Assembly: GCA_964458415.1 (NCBI GenBank)
Contig: CAYWIT010000008.1
Coordinates: forward strand, 1,108-65,107
Source of the DNA: an uncultured Rhodospirillaceae bacterium
GTDB lineage: Bacteria > Pseudomonadota > Alphaproteobacteria > Micavibrionales > UBA2020
Length of the DNA stretch: 64,000 nt
Direction: 5' to 3'
Both the position numbers and the translations under genes were made by a program. Below, one piece after another: positions 29,028 through 59,883 of this stretch. The notes beneath the pieces are model-generated. The model saw only the letters and a list, made by a program, of their open reading frames with translations, ran no database searches and had not been told where the DNA came from. Position 1 is the stretch's first letter; every line of letters begins with the position of its first letter.

Positions 29028-31436
29028 ATGCAACATGAAACCGTCACCCTTGGCACAAAATATCCGGTTCTCCCGTTAAGGGATATTGTCGTTTTTCCGC
29101 ATATGATCGTGCCGCTGTTTGTCGGACGTGAAAAATCCGTCAAAGCGCTGGAAGGCGCCATGCTGGAAGGTAAACAGGTCTTGCTCGTGACGCAAAAATC
29201 CGCGCAGCAGGATGATCCAACGGCGGGGGACCTGTACGATATCGGCACGCTGGGCAATGTTTTGCAGTTGCTCAAACTGCCGGATGGGACGGTTAAAGTT
29301 CTGGTCGAAGGACAAAAGCGTATTCGGGTGTTGTCCTATACGGACAAGCCGGAATATTTTGAAGCCTATGCCGAACCCGTCGAAGAGAGCGAAGCAAAGG
29401 GGGAGGCGCTGGAAGGCCTGATGCGCGCCTGCATTTCCCAGTTTGACCAGTATGTGAAACTGAACAAAAAAATTCCGCCGGAAATTGTGGGCTCTATCGG
29501 ACAGATAGAAGACGCGCAAAAGCTGGCCGATACGGTGGCTTCGCATCTGACGCTGAAGATTTCCGATCGTCAGAAGCTGCTGGAAATGACCAATGTAGCG
29601 GAGCGGCTGGAACAGATTTTTTCTTTCATGGAAAGCGAAATCGGCGTGATGGAGGTCGAGAAGCGCATTCGCGGCCGCGTCAAGCGCCAGATGGAAAAGA
29701 CCCAGCGCGAATACTATCTGAATGAACAGATGAAGGCCATCCAGAAGGAGCTCAACGAGGGCGAAGACGGGGGGGATGATCTGACCGATCTGGAGCAGAA
29801 AATCAAGAAGACGAAGCTGACCAAGGAGGCGCGGATCAAATGTCTGGCAGAGCTGAAAAAGTTGCGCCAGATGAGCCCGATGTCGGCAGAGTCGACGGTT
29901 GTGCGCAACTATCTCGACTGGATGCTGTCCGTGCCATGGAGCAAGCGTAGCAAGGTTTTGAAAGACCTGAAGTTCGCTGAAAAAGTGCTGGATCAGGATC
30001 ATTTCGGCCTTGAAAAGGTCAAGGAACGGATCCTCGAATATCTGGCGGTACAGCATCGCGCGAACAAGGTGAAAGGGCCGATCCTTTGCCTCGTCGGGCC
30101 TCCGGGCGTCGGCAAGACCTCGCTCGGCAAGTCGATTGCCAAGGCGACCAACCGTAATTTTGTACGGATGTCACTGGGCGGGGTGCGAGACGAATCCGAA
30201 ATCCGCGGCCATCGCCGGACATACATCGGCTCCATGCCGGGGCGCATTATTCAGGGCATGAAAAAAGCGAAGTCATCGAATCCTCTTTTCCTGCTGGACG
30301 AGATTGACAAGCTGGCGCATGACTGGCGCGGCGATCCGGCGGCGGCCTTGCTCGAGGTTCTTGATCCCGAGCAGAACAGCACCTTTAATGATCATTATCT
30401 GGAGGTGGATTACGACCTCTCGGACGTGATGTTTATTTGTACGGCGAATACGCTCGATCTGCCGCGGCCCTTGCTTGACCGGATGGAGATCATCCGTGTT
30501 TCCGGCTATACCGAGGATGAAAAGATCGAAATCGCCCGTCGCCACCTGCTTGACAAGCAGTTGAAGGCAAACGGCCTCAAGAAGGACGAGTTTTCGATCT
30601 CGGATGCAGCTATTTTCCACCTGATCCGTTATTACACGCGGGAGGCCGGAGTGCGTAATCTGGAGCGCGAGCTGTCCAATCTGGCACGCAAGGCAATCAA
30701 GGAAATCATGCTGGGCAAGAATACCTCGGTTGCCATCACGCCAAAGAATATTGAGAAATACGCAGGCGTGCCGCGCTACCGCTTCGGTCAGGCAGAGGAG
30801 CAGGATCGTGTCGGTTGCGTGACCGGACTGGCCTGGACGGAAGTGGGTGGCGACCTGTTGCAGATCGAATCCGTGACTTTCCCCGGCGGTAAGGGCAAGG
30901 TTTCCATGACCGGAAAACTTGGCGACGTGATGAAGGAATCCATTCAGGTTGCGGAAATGCTCATCAAATCCCGTGCGCCTGCCATTGGAATCAAGCCGGA
31001 GTTGTTTGAAAATACCGGCGTTCATGTCCATGTTCCGGAAGGGGCGACGCCCAAGGACGGGCCTTCGGCGGGGATTGCGATGGTGACTTCTATTGTGTCT
31101 TGCCTGACCAATATTGCCGTGCGCAAGGACGTGGCCATGACCGGCGAGGTGGATTTGCTGGGGCAGGTCTTGCCAATTGGCGGGTTAAAAGAGAAACTTC
31201 TGGCCGCGCTGCGCGGCGGGATTACCAAGGTCTTGATTCCAAAGGAAAATGTCAAGGATCTGGCCGAAATCCCGGATAATGTCAAAAAAGGGCTGGAAAT
31301 CGTGCCGGTCGGCGTTATTACCGAGGTGTTGACCCATGCCTTGGTCCGCATGCCTGAACCTGTTGAAATGGAAGCCGTAAAGCCAGTGGAAAAGCCGGCT
31401 GTGGCGGACAAGGGGGCAGAGGTTATTCGCCACTAA
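29028..31436 (+). CDS. lon: ATP-dependent protease Lon
   Basis: 802 aa. LON N-domain (YPVLPLRDIVVFPHMIVPLFVGR), Walker A (GPPGVGKTS) and protease motif (PKDGPSAGIAM). Confidence 0.95.
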   Translation: MQHETVTLGTKYPVLPLRDIVVFPHMIVPLFVGREKSVKALEGAMLEGKQVLLVTQKSAQQDDPTAGDLYDIGTLGNVLQLLKLPDGTVKVLVEGQKRIRVLSYTDKPEYFEAYAEPVEESEAKGEALEGLMRACISQFDQYVKLNKKIPPEIVGSIGQIEDAQKLADTVASHLTLKISDRQKLLEMTNVAERLEQIFSFMESEIGVMEVEKRIRGRVKRQMEKTQREYYLNEQMKAIQKELNEGEDGGDDLTDLEQKIKKTKLTKEARIKCLAELKKLRQMSPMSAESTVVRNYLDWMLSVPWSKRSKVLKDLKFAEKVLDQDHFGLEKVKERILEYLAVQHRANKVKGPILCLVGPPGVGKTSLGKSIAKATNRNFVRMSLGGVRDESEIRGHRRTYIGSMPGRIIQGMKKAKSSNPLFLLDEIDKLAHDWRGDPAAALLEVLDPEQNSTFNDHYLEVDYDLSDVMFICTANTLDLPRPLLDRMEIIRVSGYTEDEKIEIARRHLLDKQLKANGLKKDEFSISDAAIFHLIRYYTREAGVRNLERELSNLARKAIKEIMLGKNTSVAITPKNIEKYAGVPRYRFGQAEEQDRVGCVTGLAWTEVGGDLLQIESVTFPGGKGKVSMTGKLGDVMKESIQVAEMLIKSRAPAIGIKPELFENTGVHVHVPEGATPKDGPSAGIAMVTSIVSCLTNIAVRKDVAMTGEVDLLGQVLPIGGLKEKLLAALRGGITKVLIPKENVKDLAEIPDNVKKGLEIVPVGVITEVLTHALVRMPEPVEMEAVKPVEKPAVADKGAEVIRH

Positions 31437-38264: not shown

Positions 38265-41200
38265 TCAGGCCGCCCATTGATCCAGTTGCAGTTCGTGCTG
38301 TTTGAGATCGACGGAAACCAGCTGCGACACGCCTTTTTCGCTCATCGTCACGCCATAAAGCCTGTCCATGCGGGCCATAGTCATGCGATGGTGCGAAATG
38401 ACGAGGAAGCGGGTCTTGCCGTCCTTGGCAAGGTCTTCCAGCAGGGTGCAGTAGCGGTCAACGTTGCTTTCGTCCAGCGGCGCGTCAACCTCGTCCAAGA
38501 CGCAAATCGGCGCGGGGTTGGTCAGGAACATTGCGAAGATGAGCGCGATGGAGGTAAGCGTCTGTTCGCCACCCGAGAGGAGCGAAAGCACCTGCAATTT
38601 CTTGCCGGGCGGCTGGGCATAAATTTCGAGACCGGATTCCAGCGGGTCATCCGCCTCGACCAGCTTGAGGTGCGCGGTGCCGCCATTAAACAGGCGTGTA
38701 AACAGGGACTGGAAGTGATTGTTGACCGTGTCAAAGGCGTTTAGCAAGCGTTCACGGGCTTCTTTGTTAAGCCGGTTAATGCCTTCGCGCAATTTCTCAA
38801 TGGCTTGGACAAGGTCGTCGCGCTCTGTCTGCATCGTCGTCATCGTGTCCGTGATTTCCTGCGATTCAACCTCGGCGCGCAGGTTGACGGGACCCATGTT
38901 GTCGCGTTCGCGCAGCAGACGTTCCAGACGGCCATGGAGGATGTCGATGGCGTCCAGTTCGGCAACGTTCAGCTCCAGACGGGTGACGAGTTCCTCCGGC
39001 GTGCAGTTGAACTTCTCCTGAATGGAAGCCTCGACGCCGGACTGCGTGTGCTGGGTTGTGTTGACGTTTGCCTGCGCCATGGCGCGGGCTTCGCGGGCAT
39101 CCGAGAGCTTGTTTTCTGCCGCACGGAGTGCGCGCTGCATTTCGTTTGTCGTGTTTTCTGCCGTTGCCAGAATATCCGCTGCGGCACGGCGTTTTTCCTC
39201 GGCCTCAGAGATGTGGGTGAGCAGGCCTTGTTTTTCCTGCTCGATTTCCGCCGGACGTTCGGCCAGACGTTCCAGAACGTCTTTTGCCTGCGTGATACGG
39301 TCTTCCAGTTCGATCAGGCGGAGGGATATGCGCTCCAGACGTGATTCCCAGCCCGCAATATCGCTGCCAATCTGCTGCATGCGGCGGCTGCGGGATTCGC
39401 CTTCACGGCGCACTTCGGCATATTGCGCCTGATATTCGGCGAAGGACTGCCTCTGCAAGCCCAGCTCTTCCTTCATTGTCGCGATCGTCTCGCGCGTTCC
39501 GGCGGTATCGGGTAGGGCAGAAAGCGTTTCACGGGAGGTCCCCAACTGCAGCGCAAGGCTCTCGATTTCCTGCGATGCCGTTTCAATAGAGGAAGCAATG
39601 CCGGAAAGGCGGGCTGTGACTTCGCTGAGCTGGCTGTTCAGGCTGTTGTGGCGGCGGCGAAGCGCATTGAGGGTGTCTTCGGCCTGACGCAGGGCCTGAC
39701 GCGCCGTATTGACGGCATCAACGATCTCGCTGCGCTTCTCCTTGGCGAAGTCCAGCGCGGCTCTTGCCGTATCAAGGCCACCCTGCATAGCGGCGATCTC
39801 TGTTTCCAGTTCCGCCAGGCGGTTTTTTTGCTGCAGACGTACAGCCTCGGCGTTTTCAGCGTCGGGTGTGACGACCAGCCCGTCCCAGCGCCAGGCGCCG
39901 CCGTCCAGCGTGACAAGGCATTGGCCGGGCTGAAGTTCGGACATCAGGCGTTCGGCCTCTTCCGCCGTATCGACAATGCCGATCTGCGACATCACGCGGT
40001 TCAGCGCGTGGGGGCCGTTGACGGATTGCGCCAGTGTGCGGACATTGCCGGGCAGGGCGGGGGCGGCCGCGTAATCCGGCAGATCACGCCAGAAAATCGG
40101 CGCCGCGCCATCAAGAGCGGCTTGCAGGTCATCGCCAAGTGCGACTGCCAGCGCTTTTTCAAGTCCGGCCTCGACATTCAGCAGGTCGATGACGGGCTGA
40201 TAGCCTTCTTGCGGATTGCGCAGGATGCGACGGAGCGCTTCGGCTTCCGCGTTCAGCTGGGAATGGGTTTTTTGCACGTCCTGCAGATGCTCGGTGGTTT
40301 GTTGCAGGCTTGTTTCCGCCGCGGCGCGGTCGGATTCCGCCGCTTCCAGATTCTCGCGGGATTCCTGATATACCGTTTCAGCGGTTTCAATTTGAACGGT
40401 CAGGACATTGAGCTCGGCGCGGGCGGGTGTGTTTTCAACGATTTTTGCGTGTTCGGATTCCAGCGATTGCCTGCGCGATGTCTGGTTTTCAAGACGGCGT
40501 TCCAGATCCTGAATGTGCCGCGTGGCGGCGTTGCGTTCGGCATCCTGACGGGCCACATCCTCGGTCAGCGTAGAAAGCTCGGATTCCGTTTTTTCAACGG
40601 CTTGCCCGGCTTCTTCTGCCAGCAGGCGGAACTCTTCCTCGCGTTCAGATTGCTGTCCGCTTTGTGCTTCCAGCGCGGAGACTTCTGTTTTCAGGCGGGA
40701 AACGGTTTCCTCCGCTTCCTGTTTTTGCACATTTTCATGCGCGACGTCGGCGGTGAATTGCTTGAGCAGGGCTTCGGAATTTTCGCGCTGTTCTTGTACC
40801 TGACGCTCTTCGGACTCAAGGCTGCCATAGGCGAGTTTCAGGCGCTGCAATCCGGCGGCAGCTTCGGCTTCGTTCTGGCGCAGCTCGGGCAATTGCGTGG
40901 CAGACTCTGTTTGTTCCGTTGTCAGGCTGGTCACGGCGATGGTCTGTTCGCGGACGATGCTCTCGGCAGCCTCAAAGGATTCAAGGGCCGCAGCGACGGC
41001 GGTCTGGCTTTCCTGCCAGCGCAGATAAAGCAGGCCCCCTTCGGTCGTCTGGATCTGTCCGCTGATGTTGCGATAGCGCGCTGCCTGACGGGCCTGTTTT
41101 TTAAGGCCTTCCAGCTGGACGTTCATGGCGCCGAGGACGTCTTCGACGCGCAGCAGATTGGTTTCTGCGGCCTTTAGTTTCAGCTCCGCTTCATGGCGGC

Positions 41201-41729
41201 GGGCATGCAGTCCGGAAATGCCGGCGGCTTCTTCCAGCACCATGCGGCGCTGGGTCGGCTTGGCGTTGATCATGTCGGCAATACGGCCTTGGCTGACAAG
41301 AGCGGGAGAATGGGCGCCAATGGATGAATCCGCAAAAAGCAGCTGCACATCGCGCATACGAACGCTTTTGCCGTTGACTTTATAGACCGATCCGACATCC
41401 CGCTCGATCTTGCGGGAAACTACCAGTTCATCGGAATCGTTTATTTCGGCAGGGGCCGTGCGGTCGCTGTTATTCAGCGCCAGAACGACTTCGGCGGTGT
41501 TGCGGGCGGGGCGGTGCTCGGTCCCGTTAAAAATAACATCGTCCATATCGCTGGAGCGCATCCGTTTGGGCGAGTTTTCGCCCATGGCCCAGCGCAGCGC
41601 TTCGACAAGGTTGGATTTTCCGCAGCCGTTGGGGCCGACAATGCCGGTCAGGCCTTGCCCGATATCCAGTTCGGTGTGTTCAACAAATGATTTAAAACCT
41701 GTCAGGCGGAGCTTGGTGAACTGGACCAT
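38265..41729 (-). CDS. smc: chromosome segregation protein SMC
   Basis: 1154 aa. N-terminal Walker A (GPNGCGKSN), long coiled coils, a hinge, a C-terminal signature (LSGGEQTL) and Walker B (VLDEVDAPLD). Confidence 0.95.
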   Translation of the reverse strand: MVQFTKLRLTGFKSFVEHTELDIGQGLTGIVGPNGCGKSNLVEALRWAMGENSPKRMRSSDMDDVIFNGTEHRPARNTAEVVLALNNSDRTAPAEINDSDELVVSRKIERDVGSVYKVNGKSVRMRDVQLLFADSSIGAHSPALVSQGRIADMINAKPTQRRMVLEEAAGISGLHARRHEAELKLKAAETNLLRVEDVLGAMNVQLEGLKKQARQAARYRNISGQIQTTEGGLLYLRWQESQTAVAAALESFEAAESIVREQTIAVTSLTTEQTESATQLPELRQNEAEAAAGLQRLKLAYGSLESEERQVQEQRENSEALLKQFTADVAHENVQKQEAEETVSRLKTEVSALEAQSGQQSEREEEFRLLAEEAGQAVEKTESELSTLTEDVARQDAERNAATRHIQDLERRLENQTSRRQSLESEHAKIVENTPARAELNVLTVQIETAETVYQESRENLEAAESDRAAAETSLQQTTEHLQDVQKTHSQLNAEAEALRRILRNPQEGYQPVIDLLNVEAGLEKALAVALGDDLQAALDGAAPIFWRDLPDYAAAPALPGNVRTLAQSVNGPHALNRVMSQIGIVDTAEEAERLMSELQPGQCLVTLDGGAWRWDGLVVTPDAENAEAVRLQQKNRLAELETEIAAMQGGLDTARAALDFAKEKRSEIVDAVNTARQALRQAEDTLNALRRRHNSLNSQLSEVTARLSGIASSIETASQEIESLALQLGTSRETLSALPDTAGTRETIATMKEELGLQRQSFAEYQAQYAEVRREGESRSRRMQQIGSDIAGWESRLERISLRLIELEDRITQAKDVLERLAERPAEIEQEKQGLLTHISEAEEKRRAAADILATAENTTNEMQRALRAAENKLSDAREARAMAQANVNTTQHTQSGVEASIQEKFNCTPEELVTRLELNVAELDAIDILHGRLERLLRERDNMGPVNLRAEVESQEITDTMTTMQTERDDLVQAIEKLREGINRLNKEARERLLNAFDTVNNHFQSLFTRLFNGGTAHLKLVEADDPLESGLEIYAQPPGKKLQVLSLLSGGEQTLTSIALIFAMFLTNPAPICVLDEVDAPLDESNVDRYCTLLEDLAKDGKTRFLVISHHRMTMARMDRLYGVTMSEKGVSQLVSVDLKQHELQLDQWAA

Positions 41730-53038: not shown

Positions 53039-53938
53039 TTATGTTCCGGAGAACAGCATGGCACGGTCAAGTCCGGCGTCCCGCACCTTGATTTGCAGGG
53101 TGTCCCGCAGCTTTTCCATCGCGCGCTGTTCCAGCTGGCGCACACGTTCCTTGCTGATGCCCAGCTGTTTGCCGAGATCTTCCAAAGTAACGACTTTCTC
53201 CCGCATCTGGCGTTCGCGAATAATGGTTCTTTCGCGCGGATTGAGATCAGACAGGGCTTCGTTCAGCCAACGGGATTGCGTTATGTTATCTTTCATGCCG
53301 ATAACGATATCTTCCGGATTGGGAGAGTCGTCCGCCATCATATCCTGCCATTCGTGAACGCCACCATCGCCAATCGGAACGTTCAGGGACTGGTCGCCGC
53401 CATTCATGCGGGCCTCCATTTCCACGACGTCCTTCGGGGTTACGCCCAGTTCGGTTGCAATTTCTCCGATGGCGTCCTTATCAAGGTATTCACGCGCCGA
53501 CTGGCCTTCAATTTTTGCCCGCAGGCGGCGCAGATTAAAGAACAGTGACTTCTGGCTGGATGTTGTGCCGGTACGTACGATTGACCAGTTGCGCAAGACA
53601 TAATCCTGTATTTGCGCTTTGATCCACCATGTGGCATAGGTCGAAAACCGGTTTTCAAGGGCCGGTTCAAAACGTGCAGCGGCCTCCATCAGGCCGATAT
53701 TTCCTTCTTGAATAAGATCGCTCATCGGGAGTCCGTAATTCTTGAATTTTGCGGCAATGGCGATGACGAGACGTGTGTAGGAGCTGACCATTTCATGGAG
53801 GGCCTTTTCGTCACGATGCTCTTTCCAGCGGCGCGCAAGATCCAGCTCATGCGTGCGCTCCAGCATCGGCGCATCCATCGCCTTGCGGATGTAGCGCAGG
53901 TTGGCTTGTTGTGCTGTGTTATCTTCCATATAGGCCAT
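53039..53938 (-). CDS. rpoH: RNA polymerase sigma-32 (heat-shock) factor
   Basis: 299 aa. Region 2 (DLIQEGNIGLMEAAARFEP...FSTYATWWIKAQIQDYV), RpoH box (SQKSLFFNLRRL) and region 4 (LEDLGKQLGISKERVRQLEQRA). Confidence 0.9.
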   Translation of the reverse strand: MAYMEDNTAQQANLRYIRKAMDAPMLERTHELDLARRWKEHRDEKALHEMVSSYTRLVIAIAAKFKNYGLPMSDLIQEGNIGLMEAAARFEPALENRFSTYATWWIKAQIQDYVLRNWSIVRTGTTSSQKSLFFNLRRLRAKIEGQSAREYLDKDAIGEIATELGVTPKDVVEMEARMNGGDQSLNVPIGDGGVHEWQDMMADDSPNPEDIVIGMKDNITQSRWLNEALSDLNPRERTIIRERQMREKVVTLEDLGKQLGISKERVRQLEQRAMEKLRDTLQIKVRDAGLDRAMLFSGT

Positions 53939-55215: not shown

Positions 55216-55554
55216 TCAATCCCCTTCACCGGGGTCCGGGCTAAAGAATTTCATTTTGTTCTTCACCTTTTTGAACTCTTCAGCTTCGGGCAGGGCGGGT
55301 TTCTTCCGGGTAATATTCGGCCATTTTCCCATAGAGTATTCACGGTTCAGCTCCAGAAAGGCTTCGCCTTGTGGGTCTGAATCCGCCACGATGGCATCGA
55401 TGGGACATTCCGGAACGCAGACGCCGCAATCAATGCACTCGTCCGGATTGATGACAAGCGTGTTTTCCCCTTCGTAGAAGCAGTCTACCGGGCAGACTTC
55501 AACGCAATCCGTGTATTTACATTTGATGCAGACATCCGTGACGATGTAGGTCAT
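55216..55554 (-). CDS. fdxA: ferredoxin (7Fe, [3Fe-4S][4Fe-4S] FdxA type)
   Basis: 112 aa. [29 protein letters not shown]...[12 protein letters not shown]. Confidence 0.9.
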
Positions 55555-55614
55555 TTTTATCTCTATGCTGTTTTTTAGGCTTTATACGCCTGTTTCCAGC
55601 GGCCATCAAGGGGG

Positions 55615-56547
55615 CTAGCCCGCGTTAACGATTCTTTGAATCAGCGCTTCTTTTATGGCATCAGCCCTGTCGTTGTCGATCTGGCAGGTTCCGACAGCCT
55701 TGTGGCCGCCGCCGCCGTGTTCCAGCATCAGGCTGCCGACATCCACCTGAGCGGACCTGTTCAGTACGGATTTTCCGACAGCAAAAACCGTATTGACGCC
55801 TTGTTTGCCGGGCATGACATGCATGGAAATGTTTTGTTCGGGGTACATTGCGTAAATTGTAAATCTGTTTGTGACAAAGATTTCCTTTTCATTGCGTAGA
55901 TCAAGGACAAGGAGATTATTGTGAATTTCCGCGCAGGTCTCGATTTGCTTTTTTGCAAGAGGCAGGTGCTTTCTGTACATATGAACGCGTTCGGCGACAT
56001 CAGGGTGATTCAGAATCTCATCCACATTTTTATGTGTGCGCAGAATATCGACGAAATCCATCATTAACTGATAGTTTGAAACGCGGAAATCACGAAACCG
56101 GCCCAGACCGGTACGGTTGTCCATGATGAAGCCAAGCAGGACCCATCCTTGCGGATTCAGGATATCTTCGTGAGATATTTGCGCAGCATCGATTTTATCG
56201 GTCGCGCTCATAAGATCCGCTGTGATATTGGGAAATTTTTCAGCGCCGCCAAAGTGGCGATAGACGACGTGCGCCGCCGAAGGCGCCGTCGGATCGTTGA
56301 TCACATTTGCCGCCTGACCTTTGTTGCGCTCAATTTCGCTGGCGTGGTGGTCAAAAACGATATGCGCTTTCGGGTGATAGGGAAGGTTGGTGATGATGTC
56401 GCGTCCGGTGACTTCAATGGTGCCGTCCTGCATATCCTTGGGGTGGGCATACTTGACCTCATCAATCATGCCGATTTCCCTGAGTAATGCGGCGCAGACA
56501 ATGCCATCCATGTCGCTACGGGTAATAAGACGATATTTCTCCTGCAT
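55615..56547 (-). CDS. DHH-family phosphoesterase-like protein
   Basis: 310 aa. RSDMDGIVCAALL (DHH motif I-like), FDHHASE (DHH) and a C-terminal GGGHKAVGT (DHHA1 GGGH) motif. Confidence 0.7.
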   Translation of the reverse strand: MQEKYRLITRSDMDGIVCAALLREIGMIDEVKYAHPKDMQDGTIEVTGRDIITNLPYHPKAHIVFDHHASEIERNKGQAANVINDPTAPSAAHVVYRHFGGAEKFPNITADLMSATDKIDAAQISHEDILNPQGWVLLGFIMDNRTGLGRFRDFRVSNYQLMMDFVDILRTHKNVDEILNHPDVAERVHMYRKHLPLAKKQIETCAEIHNNLLVLDLRNEKEIFVTNRFTIYAMYPEQNISMHVMPGKQGVNTVFAVGKSVLNRSAQVDVGSLMLEHGGGGHKAVGTCQIDNDRADAIKEALIQRIVNAG

Positions 56548-56705
56548 TATTATCCTTCAAATGTTGCCAAGTTTTCAGGGGATTATAAACTAAATCCAAA
56601 AAATGAAAATACCCTTGGGGCGGAGGAGGCGTGAATAATTTTGAGATATTCATGTTTTCACCATCGTGCCCGACTTGTTGGAAGTCCATGGAGATGCCGC
56701 AATAT

Positions 56706-57071
56706 GTCACCGTTCCCCGCAATTTAGGGGGATACGGCAACCTGTACCTCATGCCACAACAGACAAAGAAGGTCACCGTTCCCCGCAATTTAGGGGGATA
56801 CGGCAACAAGCGCGAAAGAACACAGCTTATCGTGAACGTCACCGTTCCCCGCAATTTAGGGGGATACGGCAACACTATTGGCGATGCATTGACAGAATCA
56901 TCTGTCACCGTTCCCCGCAATTTAGGGGGATACGGCAACGTGCGACATGAACAAGTACGACGCCGAACAGTCACCGTTCCCCGCAATTTAGGGGGATACG
57001 GCAACTTGTCAAACTGCTCATTCCAGTTAGTGATTGTCACCGTTCCCCGCAATTTAGGGGGATACGGCAAC
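56706..57071 (-). CRISPR. CRISPR array: 6 identical 36-nt repeats and 5 spacers of exactly 30 nt
   Basis: The plus-strand repeat is GTCACCGTTCCCCGCAATTTAGGGGGATACGGCAAC. Copies start at 56706, 56772, 56838, 56904, 56970 and 57036, giving a 66-nt period. Spacers lie at 56742..56771, 56808..56837, 56874..56903, 56940..56969 and 57006..57035 and are all unique. The strand assignment (minus, co-directional with the adjacent HEPN gene) is an inference from repeat folding, not certain. Confidence 0.95.
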
Positions 57072-57157
57072 TGGTTCCTTTCAAAGCTTTGTTTCCAAAG
57101 CAGAAAGGCAACCACTCGGACTTACAAAATCCACAAAAGTGAACTAATGCCGATCTA

Positions 57158-58588
57158 TTATGTAGCATTTTTTCCCGCTCGTTGCAAGCCATTGGATTGT
57201 CCGGCGTGTTGCAGTGCCCGCATCCATCCGGCAGCGATTTTGCGGACTGCGCGTCGTCGGTTGACTTCAGTGCCGCTATTTTTCTCCTGTTTTGCCTGCG
57301 CGCGTTTTTCTGCGCTCCAGCGACGAATTTTTTCCGTCTTCGGATGTCCATCGTCAGACGTATGCATGACGGCATGATTTTCGCGGCGCAATAGCCGTTC
57401 GATCTGGTCGCAGAAGGTAGACTTCTGCCCCGTGGGAAGGGAGGCAAGAACTTTGGCGAAAACATCCTCAACTGTCAGGGGGCTCTTGTTATCCTGTGCG
57501 TAAATGCGCCAGAACAACCCGTTATGCGCCAGTGTGTTTCGTATATTGTGCAAATCGGCGTCTTGAATTTTCTCTCCTTTTTTATCCTTCGGCGCGAAAT
57601 CGATATAGTGATGGATGACAGCACCTATGTGCATGGTAAGCATGTAAAGGGGTTCAATGTCGTGCCGAAAGCTGGGTTTTTCCGCATGGTCTGCTGTATA
57701 GATGAGGGCGCGGCTTTTTTTCTGCAGGGGGAGGCCAAGGCATTCGAAAATTGCGCGCAGGTTCTGTGGACCGATAAAGTCATAGCGGCGTTTGAACTGA
57801 AATTCACGATAATCCGTGGGCGATATGCCGAGCGCCCTGTATGACTTGAGCCAGATCGCGGTGTTGTCGGCATCTGTCGCAAGCGCCTTACGGCGTGTTT
57901 TTCCAATCCTCGCGCGTTTTCGTTCCTCCGAAAACATAAGGCGACGGCTCTCGGCGTTTTCCTGCCTGCACCATTCGAAGAGTGTGTGCATGCCGTCAGC
58001 CGCTGCCTGCGCCGTCTTTTCTTTTACGGAGCGGGCTCTCATTTCTAACATGTTGCATATTCCCGGTAAAAGCAGGATGCTAAGCGCTTCGAGCACTTTT
58101 GTATTTTTCTGCGCGTTGAAAGTCTCTCGCTTTCTTTTCCTCTCTGCGTAATGCTCAAGATAATGACGTTTGTCTATCAAGATCTCTATGGCGTCGTTGA
58201 ACTGCTCAAACCGCCAGAAAATACCATGCTGCTGCTTGAAACCATCAGCAAATATTTTTTGCAAGCTTTCGTCCTCTTGCAGTTTCCGCAACAGGGAAAG
58301 GAATCCTTTGTGAAAGATGTCCGTGGTTTTCGTGTGTCGGCACTTCGGGTCAAGAACTGCACTGCGAAAGTGGGCTTTGTTTTTTGGGATGGCCTTTTTG
58401 GCAATACTAAACATTTTTTTGCGGCGGGCCATGGCGCTGCGTGGGAAACCCTGCCAGAACAAAGTTTGCGCATGGGTGCCTGCCAGACGGATAAAGAACA
58501 GCAAGTCCGAGCGGAATACATGATTTTCTTCCAGAGAGGAAAGGTCGATATCTTGCGGTTTCAGGCAATGCGGAACAATTTTTTTCAT
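57158..58588 (-). CDS. candidate miniature single-effector CRISPR RNase: 476-aa basic protein with two HEPN-type R-x4-H motifs (Cas13-like / type VI-like)
   Basis: This is the only ORF between the array and the housekeeping genes. It carries RHYLEH (aa 141-146) and RNTLAH (aa 350-355), both fitting the R[NHQ]xxxH form used by Cas13 HEPN sites. It has several Arg/Lys patches (ERKRKRE, EERKRARIGKTRRK, RRWSAEKRAQAKQEK...NRRRAVRK). The array lies 86 bp downstream on the same strand. The ATG overlaps the stop of the upstream gene (TAATG). No overall family recognised by eye. Confidence 0.65.
   Translation of the reverse strand: MKKIVPHCLKPQDIDLSSLEENHVFRSDLLFFIRLAGTHAQTLFWQGFPRSAMARRKKMFSIAKKAIPKNKAHFRSAVLDPKCRHTKTTDIFHKGFLSLLRKLQEDESLQKIFADGFKQQHGIFWRFEQFNDAIEILIDKRHYLEHYAERKRKRETFNAQKNTKVLEALSILLLPGICNMLEMRARSVKEKTAQAAADGMHTLFEWCRQENAESRRLMFSEERKRARIGKTRRKALATDADNTAIWLKSYRALGISPTDYREFQFKRRYDFIGPQNLRAIFECLGLPLQKKSRALIYTADHAEKPSFRHDIEPLYMLTMHIGAVIHHYIDFAPKDKKGEKIQDADLHNIRNTLAHNGLFWRIYAQDNKSPLTVEDVFAKVLASLPTGQKSTFCDQIERLLRRENHAVMHTSDDGHPKTEKIRRWSAEKRAQAKQEKNSGTEVNRRRAVRKIAAGWMRALQHAGQSNGLQRAGKNAT
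57524..57541 (-). other. HEPN-type motif 2 (R350-N-T-L-A-H355)
   Basis: The complement of 57524..57541 reads CGA AAC ACA CTG GCG CAT. Local context: DLHNIRNTLAHNGLFW. Confidence 0.6.
58151..58168 (-). other. HEPN-type motif 1 (R141-H-Y-L-E-H146)
   Basis: The complement of 58151..58168 reads CGT CAT TAT CTT GAG CAT. Confidence 0.6.
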
Positions 58589-59883
58589 TACAACGTATCG
58601 CGCAGTCTATACCAGAGCATTCCCAGCACAAACAAGGGCTGTTTCAGCAGGTTGCCTCCCGGAAACGGCGCATGTTTAATGCCGGCAAAAACGTCAAACC
58701 GTTCCGCCGTGCCGCTGACGGCTTCGGCAAGGACTTTTCCGAGGATATTGGTGGCGACGACGCCATGTCCGCCAAAGCCGTGGGCAAAATAGACCTGCGG
58801 TGTTATGCGGCCGAGGTGGGGCATGCGGTTGATGGTAAATTCGATGGGCCCACACCAGCAGTGGTCAATACGCGTCATGGCCAGCGCCGGAAAGAGTTCA
58901 ACCATGCGTTTGCGCAAGCGGGTGTCCTCACCGGGGTAATCCTTGCCGCTATAATTGCAGTTACCGCCAAAGAGAATGCGCTTGTCGGCGGACAGCCGGT
59001 AATAATTCATGATAAAATTCGCATCGATCACGGCGATGTCGCGGCGGAAAATATTTTGCGCCAGACGTTCGCCCAGCGGCTCGGTAGCGATCATATGCGC
59101 GGTGGCCGTAATGGATTTTTTCTGCATGACATCAAGTCCGTTAATGCCGATCGCGCCGGCCAGAATAACGAATTTGGCATTCACAAGGCCGTGCGCTGTT
59201 TTGACTCTGGGCGCAGGGCCGCTTGTATCCAGTGCCGTGGCAGGGCAGCCGTCATAAATTTTACAGCCAAGTTTCTGTGCGGCCTGTGCAATGCCCAGCG
59301 CGTAATTCAGCGGGTGGAAATGCCCTGCTTTCATATCCAGCATGCCGCCTGTATATTTCTCGCAATTGATATAGGCTTGTGTTTCTTTTTGGTCGAGCAG
59401 TTGGAAGTCGTTATGGCCGACGGCTTTCCAGTCATTGATTTCACTTTGCAAGGCGCTGATATGGCCTTGGTTCATGGCGGCAGTTAAATGGCCGAATTTC
59501 AGGTCGCATTGAATGTCATGCTCCATGATCCGGCGCAGGATAAGATCAATGCCTTCCAGCGAGATATCCAGCAGGGTTTTGGCTTGTCCGATGCCAAATT
59601 GGCGGATCAGCGTTGCCGTGTCCATGGCAAACCCGCGCTGCAAATGTCCGCCATTCCGGCCCGAAGCGGAAGAGGCAATAGTGCCGCTTTCCAATAATAT
59701 GACGGAATAACCTTTGCGGGAAAGCTCCAATGCAGCGGAAAGTCCTGTAAAACCGCCGCCAATGATGCAAACATCACAGTTGACCTCGCTCCGGAGGGAG
59801 CCTAGAGTCGCGACAAGGCGATTGGTCGTCAGAGCATACCATGGACTTGTGTATTCTTTTACATTTTCATATTTCTTTGGCAT
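58588..59883 (-). CDS. FAD-dependent oxidoreductase (gamma-glutamylputrescine oxidase PuuB-like)
   Basis: Start at the internal ATG (MPKKYENVKEYTSPWYAL...). CDVCIIGGGFTGLSAALEL dinucleotide-binding motif. The overall pattern resembles E. coli PuuB. The longer track ORF (to 60024) would overlap the divergent gene. Confidence 0.8.
   Translation of the reverse strand: MPKKYENVKEYTSPWYALTTNRLVATLGSLRSEVNCDVCIIGGGFTGLSAALELSRKGYSVILLESGTIASSASGRNGGHLQRGFAMDTATLIRQFGIGQAKTLLDISLEGIDLILRRIMEHDIQCDLKFGHLTAAMNQGHISALQSEINDWKAVGHNDFQLLDQKETQAYINCEKYTGGMLDMKAGHFHPLNYALGIAQAAQKLGCKIYDGCPATALDTSGPAPRVKTAHGLVNAKFVILAGAIGINGLDVMQKKSITATAHMIATEPLGERLAQNIFRRDIAVIDANFIMNYYRLSADKRILFGGNCNYSGKDYPGEDTRLRKRMVELFPALAMTRIDHCWCGPIEFTINRMPHLGRITPQVYFAHGFGGHGVVATNILGKVLAEAVSGTAERFDVFAGIKHAPFPGGNLLKQPLFVLGMLWYRLRDTL

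Follow-up and report, generated by a model that had tools for sequence, protein, structure and literature searches.

A compact Cas13an/Cas13e ortholog with its own small CRISPR array, very likely an intact subtype VI-E locus, in a contig of an uncultured Rhodospirillaceae bacterium

A 64,000-nt stretch of contig CAYWIT010000008.1 (assembly GCA_964458415.1, an uncultured Rhodospirillaceae bacterium), hereafter the window, encodes a small Cas13-like protein, Cas13an (also named Cas13e), followed on the same strand by a CRISPR array (Table 1). We consider it very likely that the two, cas13an and its own small array, make up a real CRISPR-Cas locus of subtype VI-E that is apparently intact. Family membership of the encoded protein (the window protein), intact motifs, the array, its orientation and a window with no other cas genes are all direct observations. 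The kind of system is already known, as the family has been in print since 2024 (Yoon et al., Science 2024, PMC12165695) and is included in the 2025 CRISPR-Cas classification, where Cas13e has its own deep branch, subtype VI-E (Makarova et al. 2025); the window protein is a new ortholog.

The NCBIfam profile NF049956.1 (VI_Cas13e, "CRISPR-associated RNA-guided ribonuclease Cas13e") matched the window protein with 418.8 bits (E 3.4e-125) against a curated cut-off of 175 bits, and the match was full-length, with profile positions 1-466 of 467 aligned to residues 16-460. Across 5.8 billion protein clusters, a word-indexed search returned 13 relatives in total, 472-577 amino acids (aa) long and none of them carrying a Pfam domain; the N-terminus MK(K/I)I(V/I)P is common to the window protein and its closest homologs. 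One relative (P0004), MBW7837953.1 from a Sphingomonadales metagenome-assembled genome (MAG), is Cas13an8 (Table S3, Yoon et al., Science 2024, PMC12165695) and shares 61% identity and 77% similarity with the window protein over 475 aa. The cluster of another relative (P0011) includes WP_150213186.1, which is Cas13an1; since the NCBI name of this sequence is Cas13e, NCBI Cas13e and Cas13an are the same family. The published Cas13an proteins range from 429 to 577 aa and are described as intramolecular HEPN dimers without the canonical recognition (REC) lobe or large HEPN insertions (PMC12165695), and the 476 aa of the window protein fall inside this range. Because its N-terminal sequence is absent from the supplements of that paper, the protein is an additional ortholog, outside the 13 published. 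No evidence contradicts its membership in Cas13an/Cas13e, and the full-length profile match and the identity to Cas13an8 bear out the view of the first-pass annotation, made from the DNA sequence alone, that this is a stripped-down Cas13-like effector.

The names attached to this family are not uniform. The description of NF049956.1 reads 'type VI-C … Cas13e', as opposed to subtype VI-E in Makarova et al. 2025, and the name Cas13e was used earlier for variants of the Cas13b family, an inconsistency by which automated annotation could be led astray.

Run without filters across 1.84 billion representatives, a profile search extended the family to 86 clusters at 50% identity, of which 76 had E<=1e-10 and 54 had E<=1e-30; the 67 full-length family representatives measure 429-692 aa, with a median of 490. 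The Cas13an/Cas13e family is thus several times bigger than the 13 sequences published in 2024, yet extremely rare. When one genome was scanned for each GTDB species, 11 loci came up, every one of them in an alphaproteobacterial MAG or genome (Sphingomonadales, Hyphomonadaceae, Gemmobacter and Candidatus Tokpelaia); nine of these loci have an array with a 66-nt period, placed directly downstream of the gene in eight of them. No relative of the window protein was found encoded on IMG/VR viral contigs.

The first-pass annotation had described an effector candidate with two motifs, R141/H146 and R350/H355, at about 30% and 74% of the protein length. This numbering is right: RHYLEH occupies residues 141-146 and RNTLAH residues 350-355, within KRHYLEHYAERKRKRE (residues 140-155, at 29.4% of the protein) and HNIRNTLAHNGLFWRIY (residues 347-363, at 72.9%). 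Plain Rx4H motifs are uninformative in this protein, with three observed and 1.9 expected from shuffles, while the stricter R[NHQ]x3H occurs twice, 0.26 occurrences being expected and 2.8% of shuffles reaching two or more. It is conservation in the aligned sequences, rather than motif counts against shuffles, that is the decisive evidence for both motifs as putative catalytic sites. Among the 13 homologs R141, R350 and H355 are invariant and H146 is kept in 12; across the 67 full-length representatives, R141 and H355 are both present in 67/67, R350 in 65/67 and H146 in 57/67. The two pairs align with R127/H132 and R363/H368 of Cas13an2, in which the R127A/H132A and R363A/H368A substitutions abolished target cleavage, collateral cleavage and the processing of precursor CRISPR RNA (pre-crRNA), with binding of the CRISPR RNA (crRNA) retained (PMC12165695).

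The two motifs vary to different extents within the family. Eleven of the 67 representatives (~1 in 6) keep the HEPN1 arginine without a histidine at +5 (e.g., KRHYLKDF and KRNFLKAW), and the missing histidine is also visible in the published Cas13an11 and Cas13an13. The HEPN2 motif RNxxAH is near-universal across the same representatives.

The 36-nt repeat to which the earlier annotation referred does exist, in six exact copies, and the array starts 86 nt 3' of the effector stop codon on the same strand. In the crRNA sense (minus strand) the repeat reads GTTGCCGTATCCCCCTAAATTGCGGGGAACGGTGAC, with the layout GTTGCCGTATCCCCC-TAAATT-GCGGGGAACGGTGAC. The Cas13an8 repeat is GTTGCCGTATCCCCCTTAACTGCGGGGAACGGTGAC, with the loop TTAACT, and the repeat of L001, one of the two closest loci, has the loop TATTTT, so that all differences are confined to the loop. 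The hairpin of the window repeat is predicted to be more stable in the gene sense (-19.2 kcal/mol) than in the antisense (-14.4 kcal/mol), and 12 family repeats have in common a 13-bp hairpin with compensatory changes in 7 pairs, the conserved U3-G34 and G4-U33 wobbles of which form in the gene-sense transcript only. Because the hairpin folds better, and the wobbles form solely, in the gene sense, the array is read in the direction of the gene. Judged from the repeats, this orientation fits the published Cas13an crRNA layout, with the spacer 5' of the repeat. Long open reading frames (ORFs) had been listed across the array (56631-57377, plus strand, and 56516-57115, minus strand); these are artefacts of repeat translation.

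The 86 nt between gene and array are conserved as well, aligning with positions 7435-7520 of L001 and 7426-7510 of L002, the other closest locus and that of Cas13an8, in the blocks GGCATT.., TTTT(G/A)TAAGTCC and CTT(T/G)G(G/A)AAACAA. Both of these loci share the layout of a gene, about 85 nt and a same-strand array with a 66-nt period, and the conserved region may be a leader or array promoter. The L001 version holds a promoter-like TTGACA, 16 nt, ATAAGT, whereas its counterpart in the window is degenerate (TTAGTT … GTAAGT). A promoter and terminator scan found neither a sigma-70-like promoter nor a terminator between gene and array, and Rfam over 55500-59500 gave no known RNA family and nothing resembling a trans-activating CRISPR RNA.

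The window protein is basic (isoelectric point 10.0; K+R = 18.5%), with net-positive stretches at about residues 31-90, 211-255 and 421-465. The basic strings that the first-pass annotation had quoted between the motifs and at the C-terminus are all present, the C-terminal one with a net charge of about +8 per 30 aa, and both are conserved: the central stretch has K/R at position 225 in 60/67 representatives, K/R at 230 in 64/67 and R233 in 62/67, and the C-terminal stretch has R445 in 54/67 and R/K at 449 in 55/67. An AlphaFold2 model built on the 13-sequence alignment was confident, with a mean predicted local distance difference test (pLDDT) of 80.8 and a predicted template modelling score of 0.82. 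In this almost wholly alpha-helical model, the well-predicted helices H127-145 and H344-356 each bear one of the two Rx4H motifs at the C-terminal end. The lowest confidence coincides with the basic stretches, pLDDT being 55-72 at the central one (blocks 231-260 average 55-69) and the blocks of residues 401 to 450 averaging 47-66. Conserved basic residues together with lower model confidence make both stretches candidate RNA-contacting segments, which might bind crRNA as the first-pass annotation proposed.

The architecture proposed earlier, HEPN1 - linker - HEPN2, stands in part. There are two HEPN sites, but the order oversimplifies, as the Cas13an HEPN domains are reported to be circularly rearranged (N-2-3-4-1-C). 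For the same reason, the ~140 aa before motif 1 and the ~120 aa after motif 2, which had been judged to leave no room for a separate pre-crRNA processing domain, would be HEPN helices and not free space; in the family, these flanks are largely parts of the HEPN domains. The suggestion that no separate processing domain exists and that the HEPN site itself or a host RNase must process the array agrees with what is reported for Cas13an, where maturation is lost in the Cas13an2 HEPN mutants.

A weak parallel can be seen between residues 24-146 (FRSD helix … RHYLEH) and residues 306-410 (FRHD helix … LLRRENHAVMH). In a test for internal duplication, the hhalign comparison of the N- and C-terminal halves of the family alignment was non-significant (E 0.026, probability 1.9%) and a cross-alignment to the Cas13an2 N-terminus likewise weak (E 0.25), and both were rejected as evidence. 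The parallel may go back to the HEPN gene duplication that has been proposed, or it may mean nothing.

Experiments on the Cas13an family have established RNA-guided RNA cleavage, collateral cleavage, phage defence and Mg2+-dependent HEPN pre-crRNA processing, with >1000-fold protection against T4 in the case of Cas13an8 (PMC12165695). From the literature on Cas13an1, Cas13an2 and Cas13an8 we infer all biochemical activities of the window protein, and the mechanism proposed here is carried over from these three by homology. The array would be transcribed on the minus strand, in the gene direction, possibly by read-through from cas13an, and each crRNA would carry a spacer in its 5' part and, 3' of it, the 36-nt repeat hairpin, to which the protein would bind. 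In a step that would require Mg2+, the composite HEPN1/HEPN2 site (R141/H146 + R350/H355) would cut the pre-crRNA at a spacer position some 23-24 nt upstream of the repeat and leave a crRNA of about 60 nt. The spacer would then pair with a complementary transcript, typically of a dsDNA phage, and the same HEPN site would cleave the target RNA and then bystander RNA, thereby blocking phage replication.

Several results weigh against an intact VI-E locus. At the level of the protein, Pfam gave HEPN_Apea only below threshold (11.8 bits against 24.4; E 0.34), with the window protein below the gathering threshold for the HEPN families (HEPN_Apea, HEPN_Swt1 and Abi_2) and the matches among the 13 homologs all sub-threshold (HEPN_Apea in two, HEPN_Swt1 in one). 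PADLOC matched the protein at noise level only (NsnC, E 0.021), phmmer against PDB chains returned zero matches at E up to 10, and Foldseek of the model against PDB found no Cas13 (best E 0.32; EsCas13d E 1.2 with a template modelling score of 0.19). This lack of Foldseek and PDB similarity is nevertheless expected rather than contrary, because the Cas13an paper reports the same failure of Foldseek and hidden Markov model searches to connect Cas13an to other Cas13s (PMC12165695).

At the level of the locus, the array is short, with five spacers, and a sigma-70 scan found no promoter-like site for gene or array. An adaptation module was not seen either: PADLOC found no Cas1, Cas2 or other Cas among the 57 ORFs of at least 80 aa in the window, unlisted matches being all weaker than E 1.8e-6. 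Published Cas13an loci, however, consist of effector and array alone, the array usually directly downstream, and any adaptation module lies in trans within a type II locus, as cas1-cas2 do in 4 of the 10 published genomes (PMC12165695); the window locus agrees with this description. None of the spacers could be assigned a convincing target: blastn with the array came back empty for GenBank phages and gave only E-values of 1 or more for plasmids, and the spacers did not match the rest of the window (10 or more mismatches). Of the IMG/VR contigs, searched by five 20-mer scans, three related ones share an exact 20-mer with the spacer at 56940-56969 (L004 5666-5685, L005 491-510 and L006 2914-2933), with 24/30 positions identical overall. 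This is about chance level, chance 20-mer matches being roughly estimated at 0.1 per scan with the collection size assumed. The match lies inside an uncharacterized 255-aa ORF without a PHROG match, and the crRNA sense is antisense to this ORF, the polarity expected for mRNA targeting; the Cas13an paper accepted comparable 21-nt matches with E 0.78 (PMC12165695).

Some of these results would also be consistent with a silent or decaying relic, in which a Cas13an gene and a frozen mini-array persist after spacer acquisition and defence were lost. There are only five spacers, no cas1 or cas2 in 64 kb, no convincing protospacer and no recognisable promoter, and L001, the closest homolog locus, has just two repeats plus a degenerate third. 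We regard such decay as unlikely, however, as the ORF runs its full length without a frameshift and keeps all four catalytic residues, and the six repeats are all identical. Furthermore, active members of the family are normally without cis adaptation genes, the published sister contigs differ in spacer content, and the window covers 64 kb of a 97.5-kb contig.

The spacer 5'/repeat 3' crRNA, the 36-nt repeat starting with GTTG and the 30-nt spacers resemble Cas13b, and both the 'type VI-C' wording of the NCBIfam description and the application of the name Cas13e to Cas13b-family variants would suit a miniature Cas13b-like member of a classical subtype (e.g., Cas13bt/Cas13X) instead of a separate lineage. 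This is very improbable given that the protein resembles no solved Cas13 by sequence or Foldseek, that the 2025 classification places Cas13e on a deep branch of its own, and that 476 aa is well under the usual 800-1400 aa of Cas13 orthologs characterized earlier. A non-CRISPR HEPN toxin or abortive-infection RNase (AbiD/F- or Swt1-like) beside an unrelated orphan array, with which the weak sub-threshold matches to HEPN_Apea, HEPN_Swt1 and PADLOC NsnC and the published grouping of Cas13an HEPN domains in a clade with AbiD/F (PMC12165695) would agree, can be set aside almost entirely, because gene and array recur with conserved repeat and spacing in 9/11 genome loci from several alphaproteobacterial orders and crRNA guidance has been demonstrated for orthologs of the family.

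Table 1. Features of the subtype VI-E locus and of other genes named in the text (positions are those of the window).
Feature	Position	Strand	Basis or description
cas13an / cas13e gene, single effector of the probable subtype VI-E locus	57158..58588	-	ORF, 476 aa plus stop, ATG start
Putative HEPN1 catalytic motif R141-H-Y-L-E-H146	58151..58168	-	Conservation; alignment with Cas13an2 R127/H132
Putative HEPN2 catalytic motif R350-N-T-L-A-H355, followed by NGLFW	57524..57541	-	Conservation; alignment with Cas13an2 R363/H368
Central basic stretch EERKRARIGKTRRKALA, residues 221-237, candidate RNA-contacting segment	57878..57928	-	Composition and conservation
C-terminal basic stretch, residues 422-455 (RRWSAEKRAQ...AAGW), candidate RNA-contacting segment	57224..57325	-	Composition and conservation
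Gene-to-array region, 86 nt, conserved, leader-like	57072..57157	-	Aligned with L001 and L002 counterparts
CRISPR array	56706..57071	-	Six identical 36-nt repeats, five 30-nt spacers, 66-nt period
Housekeeping genes behind generic PADLOC matches (SMC, Lon, RpoH)	38268-41729, 29028-31433, 53042-53938	-, +, -	

The genes around the putative VI-E locus are housekeeping genes. Upstream of cas13an are a FAD-dependent oxidoreductase, a glutamine-synthetase-like ligase and ClpX; beyond the array, going outward, are a 310-aa ORF (no NCBIfam match), FdxA, a 279-aa ORF (no NCBIfam match) and RpoH. With a GC content of 0.47-0.52, the locus does not stand out clearly from its surroundings. PADLOC defence matches to mad3 (4e-54), LmuB, BrxL and MzaA were rejected, the proteins being SMC, Lon and RpoH.

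The ATG of cas13an overlaps the TAA stop of the upstream oxidoreductase ORF (58586-58593, minus strand; …GTTGTAATGAAA…), an arrangement suggestive of shared transcription with, or translational coupling to, a housekeeping gene; the overlap was not found in L001 and L002. Because of this overlap and the lack of a promoter-like site of its own, co-expression or translational coupling of cas13an with the housekeeping operon is possible. That the window ortholog is tied to the physiology of its host in another way than the characterized orthologs, through operon coupling and an array kept without any genomic adaptation module, seems to us quite doubtful. If it were true, an array without a genomic adaptation module would point to an unknown route of spacer acquisition or to a non-defence, regulatory use of the crRNAs.

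The locus leaves the current picture of type VI systems unchanged. It adds an intact ortholog, with 39% of residues different, to the Cas13an8 sub-clade, which is reported to be the most active in vivo. Cas13an/Cas13e is the smallest known RNA-guided RNase, with a single active site for guide maturation and target cleavage, and this combination of small size and one dual-purpose site lends compact orthologs appeal both as a basis for RNA-targeting tools that can be delivered and for work on the origins of Cas13 from HEPN toxins.

Cas13an8 (MBW7837953.1, from Sphingomonadales MAG BROCD004) is close to the window locus in most respects. The two proteins are near-equal in size (474 aa as opposed to 476 aa), the repeat stems are identical, the spacers are 30 nt long, and a same-strand array follows the gene about 85 nt downstream, across a conserved gene-array region and with no cas genes adjoining. 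They differ in 39% of residues, in the loop of the repeat (TTAACT as opposed to TAAATT in the window), in the number of repeats (about 10 as opposed to 6) and in the flanking genes, and the start/stop overlap with an oxidoreductase gene belongs to the window locus only. The nearest database relative is MFH1157796.1 (P0002, from a Pseudomonadota bacterium MAG), with 65% identity and the same N-terminus. Its locus shares the repeat stems and has a leader-like region of 86 nt, but just two intact repeats, and its neighbours are sigma-54, UvrD, a TilS-like gene and FtsH.

Cas13an2 (WP_072559397.1) is more distant, at about 22% identity, although it aligns collinearly and has RHWLEH and RNQIAH where the window protein has RHYLEH and RNTLAH. 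On this alignment, the window protein should share its guided cis and trans RNA cleavage and its HEPN- and Mg2+-dependent pre-crRNA processing. The Cas13an2 repeat (GTTGTAGGCAGTCCC...) is unlike the window repeat, and particulars such as the site of processing or the tolerance of mismatches may not be transferable to the window protein.

Like Cas13a-d (VI-A to VI-D) and Cas13bt/X/Y, the window protein has two HEPN Rx4H motifs in one polypeptide and would act as a single-effector RNA-guided RNase, and the Cas13an crRNA has the polarity of Cas13b, with the repeat at the 3' end. The window protein has no detectable sequence or Foldseek similarity to classical Cas13, and it is about one third to one half as large as classical Cas13a-d and the compact Cas13b variants. 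Unlike classical Cas13, Cas13an is built without a REC lobe or a dedicated processing site, and its HEPN site does both jobs.

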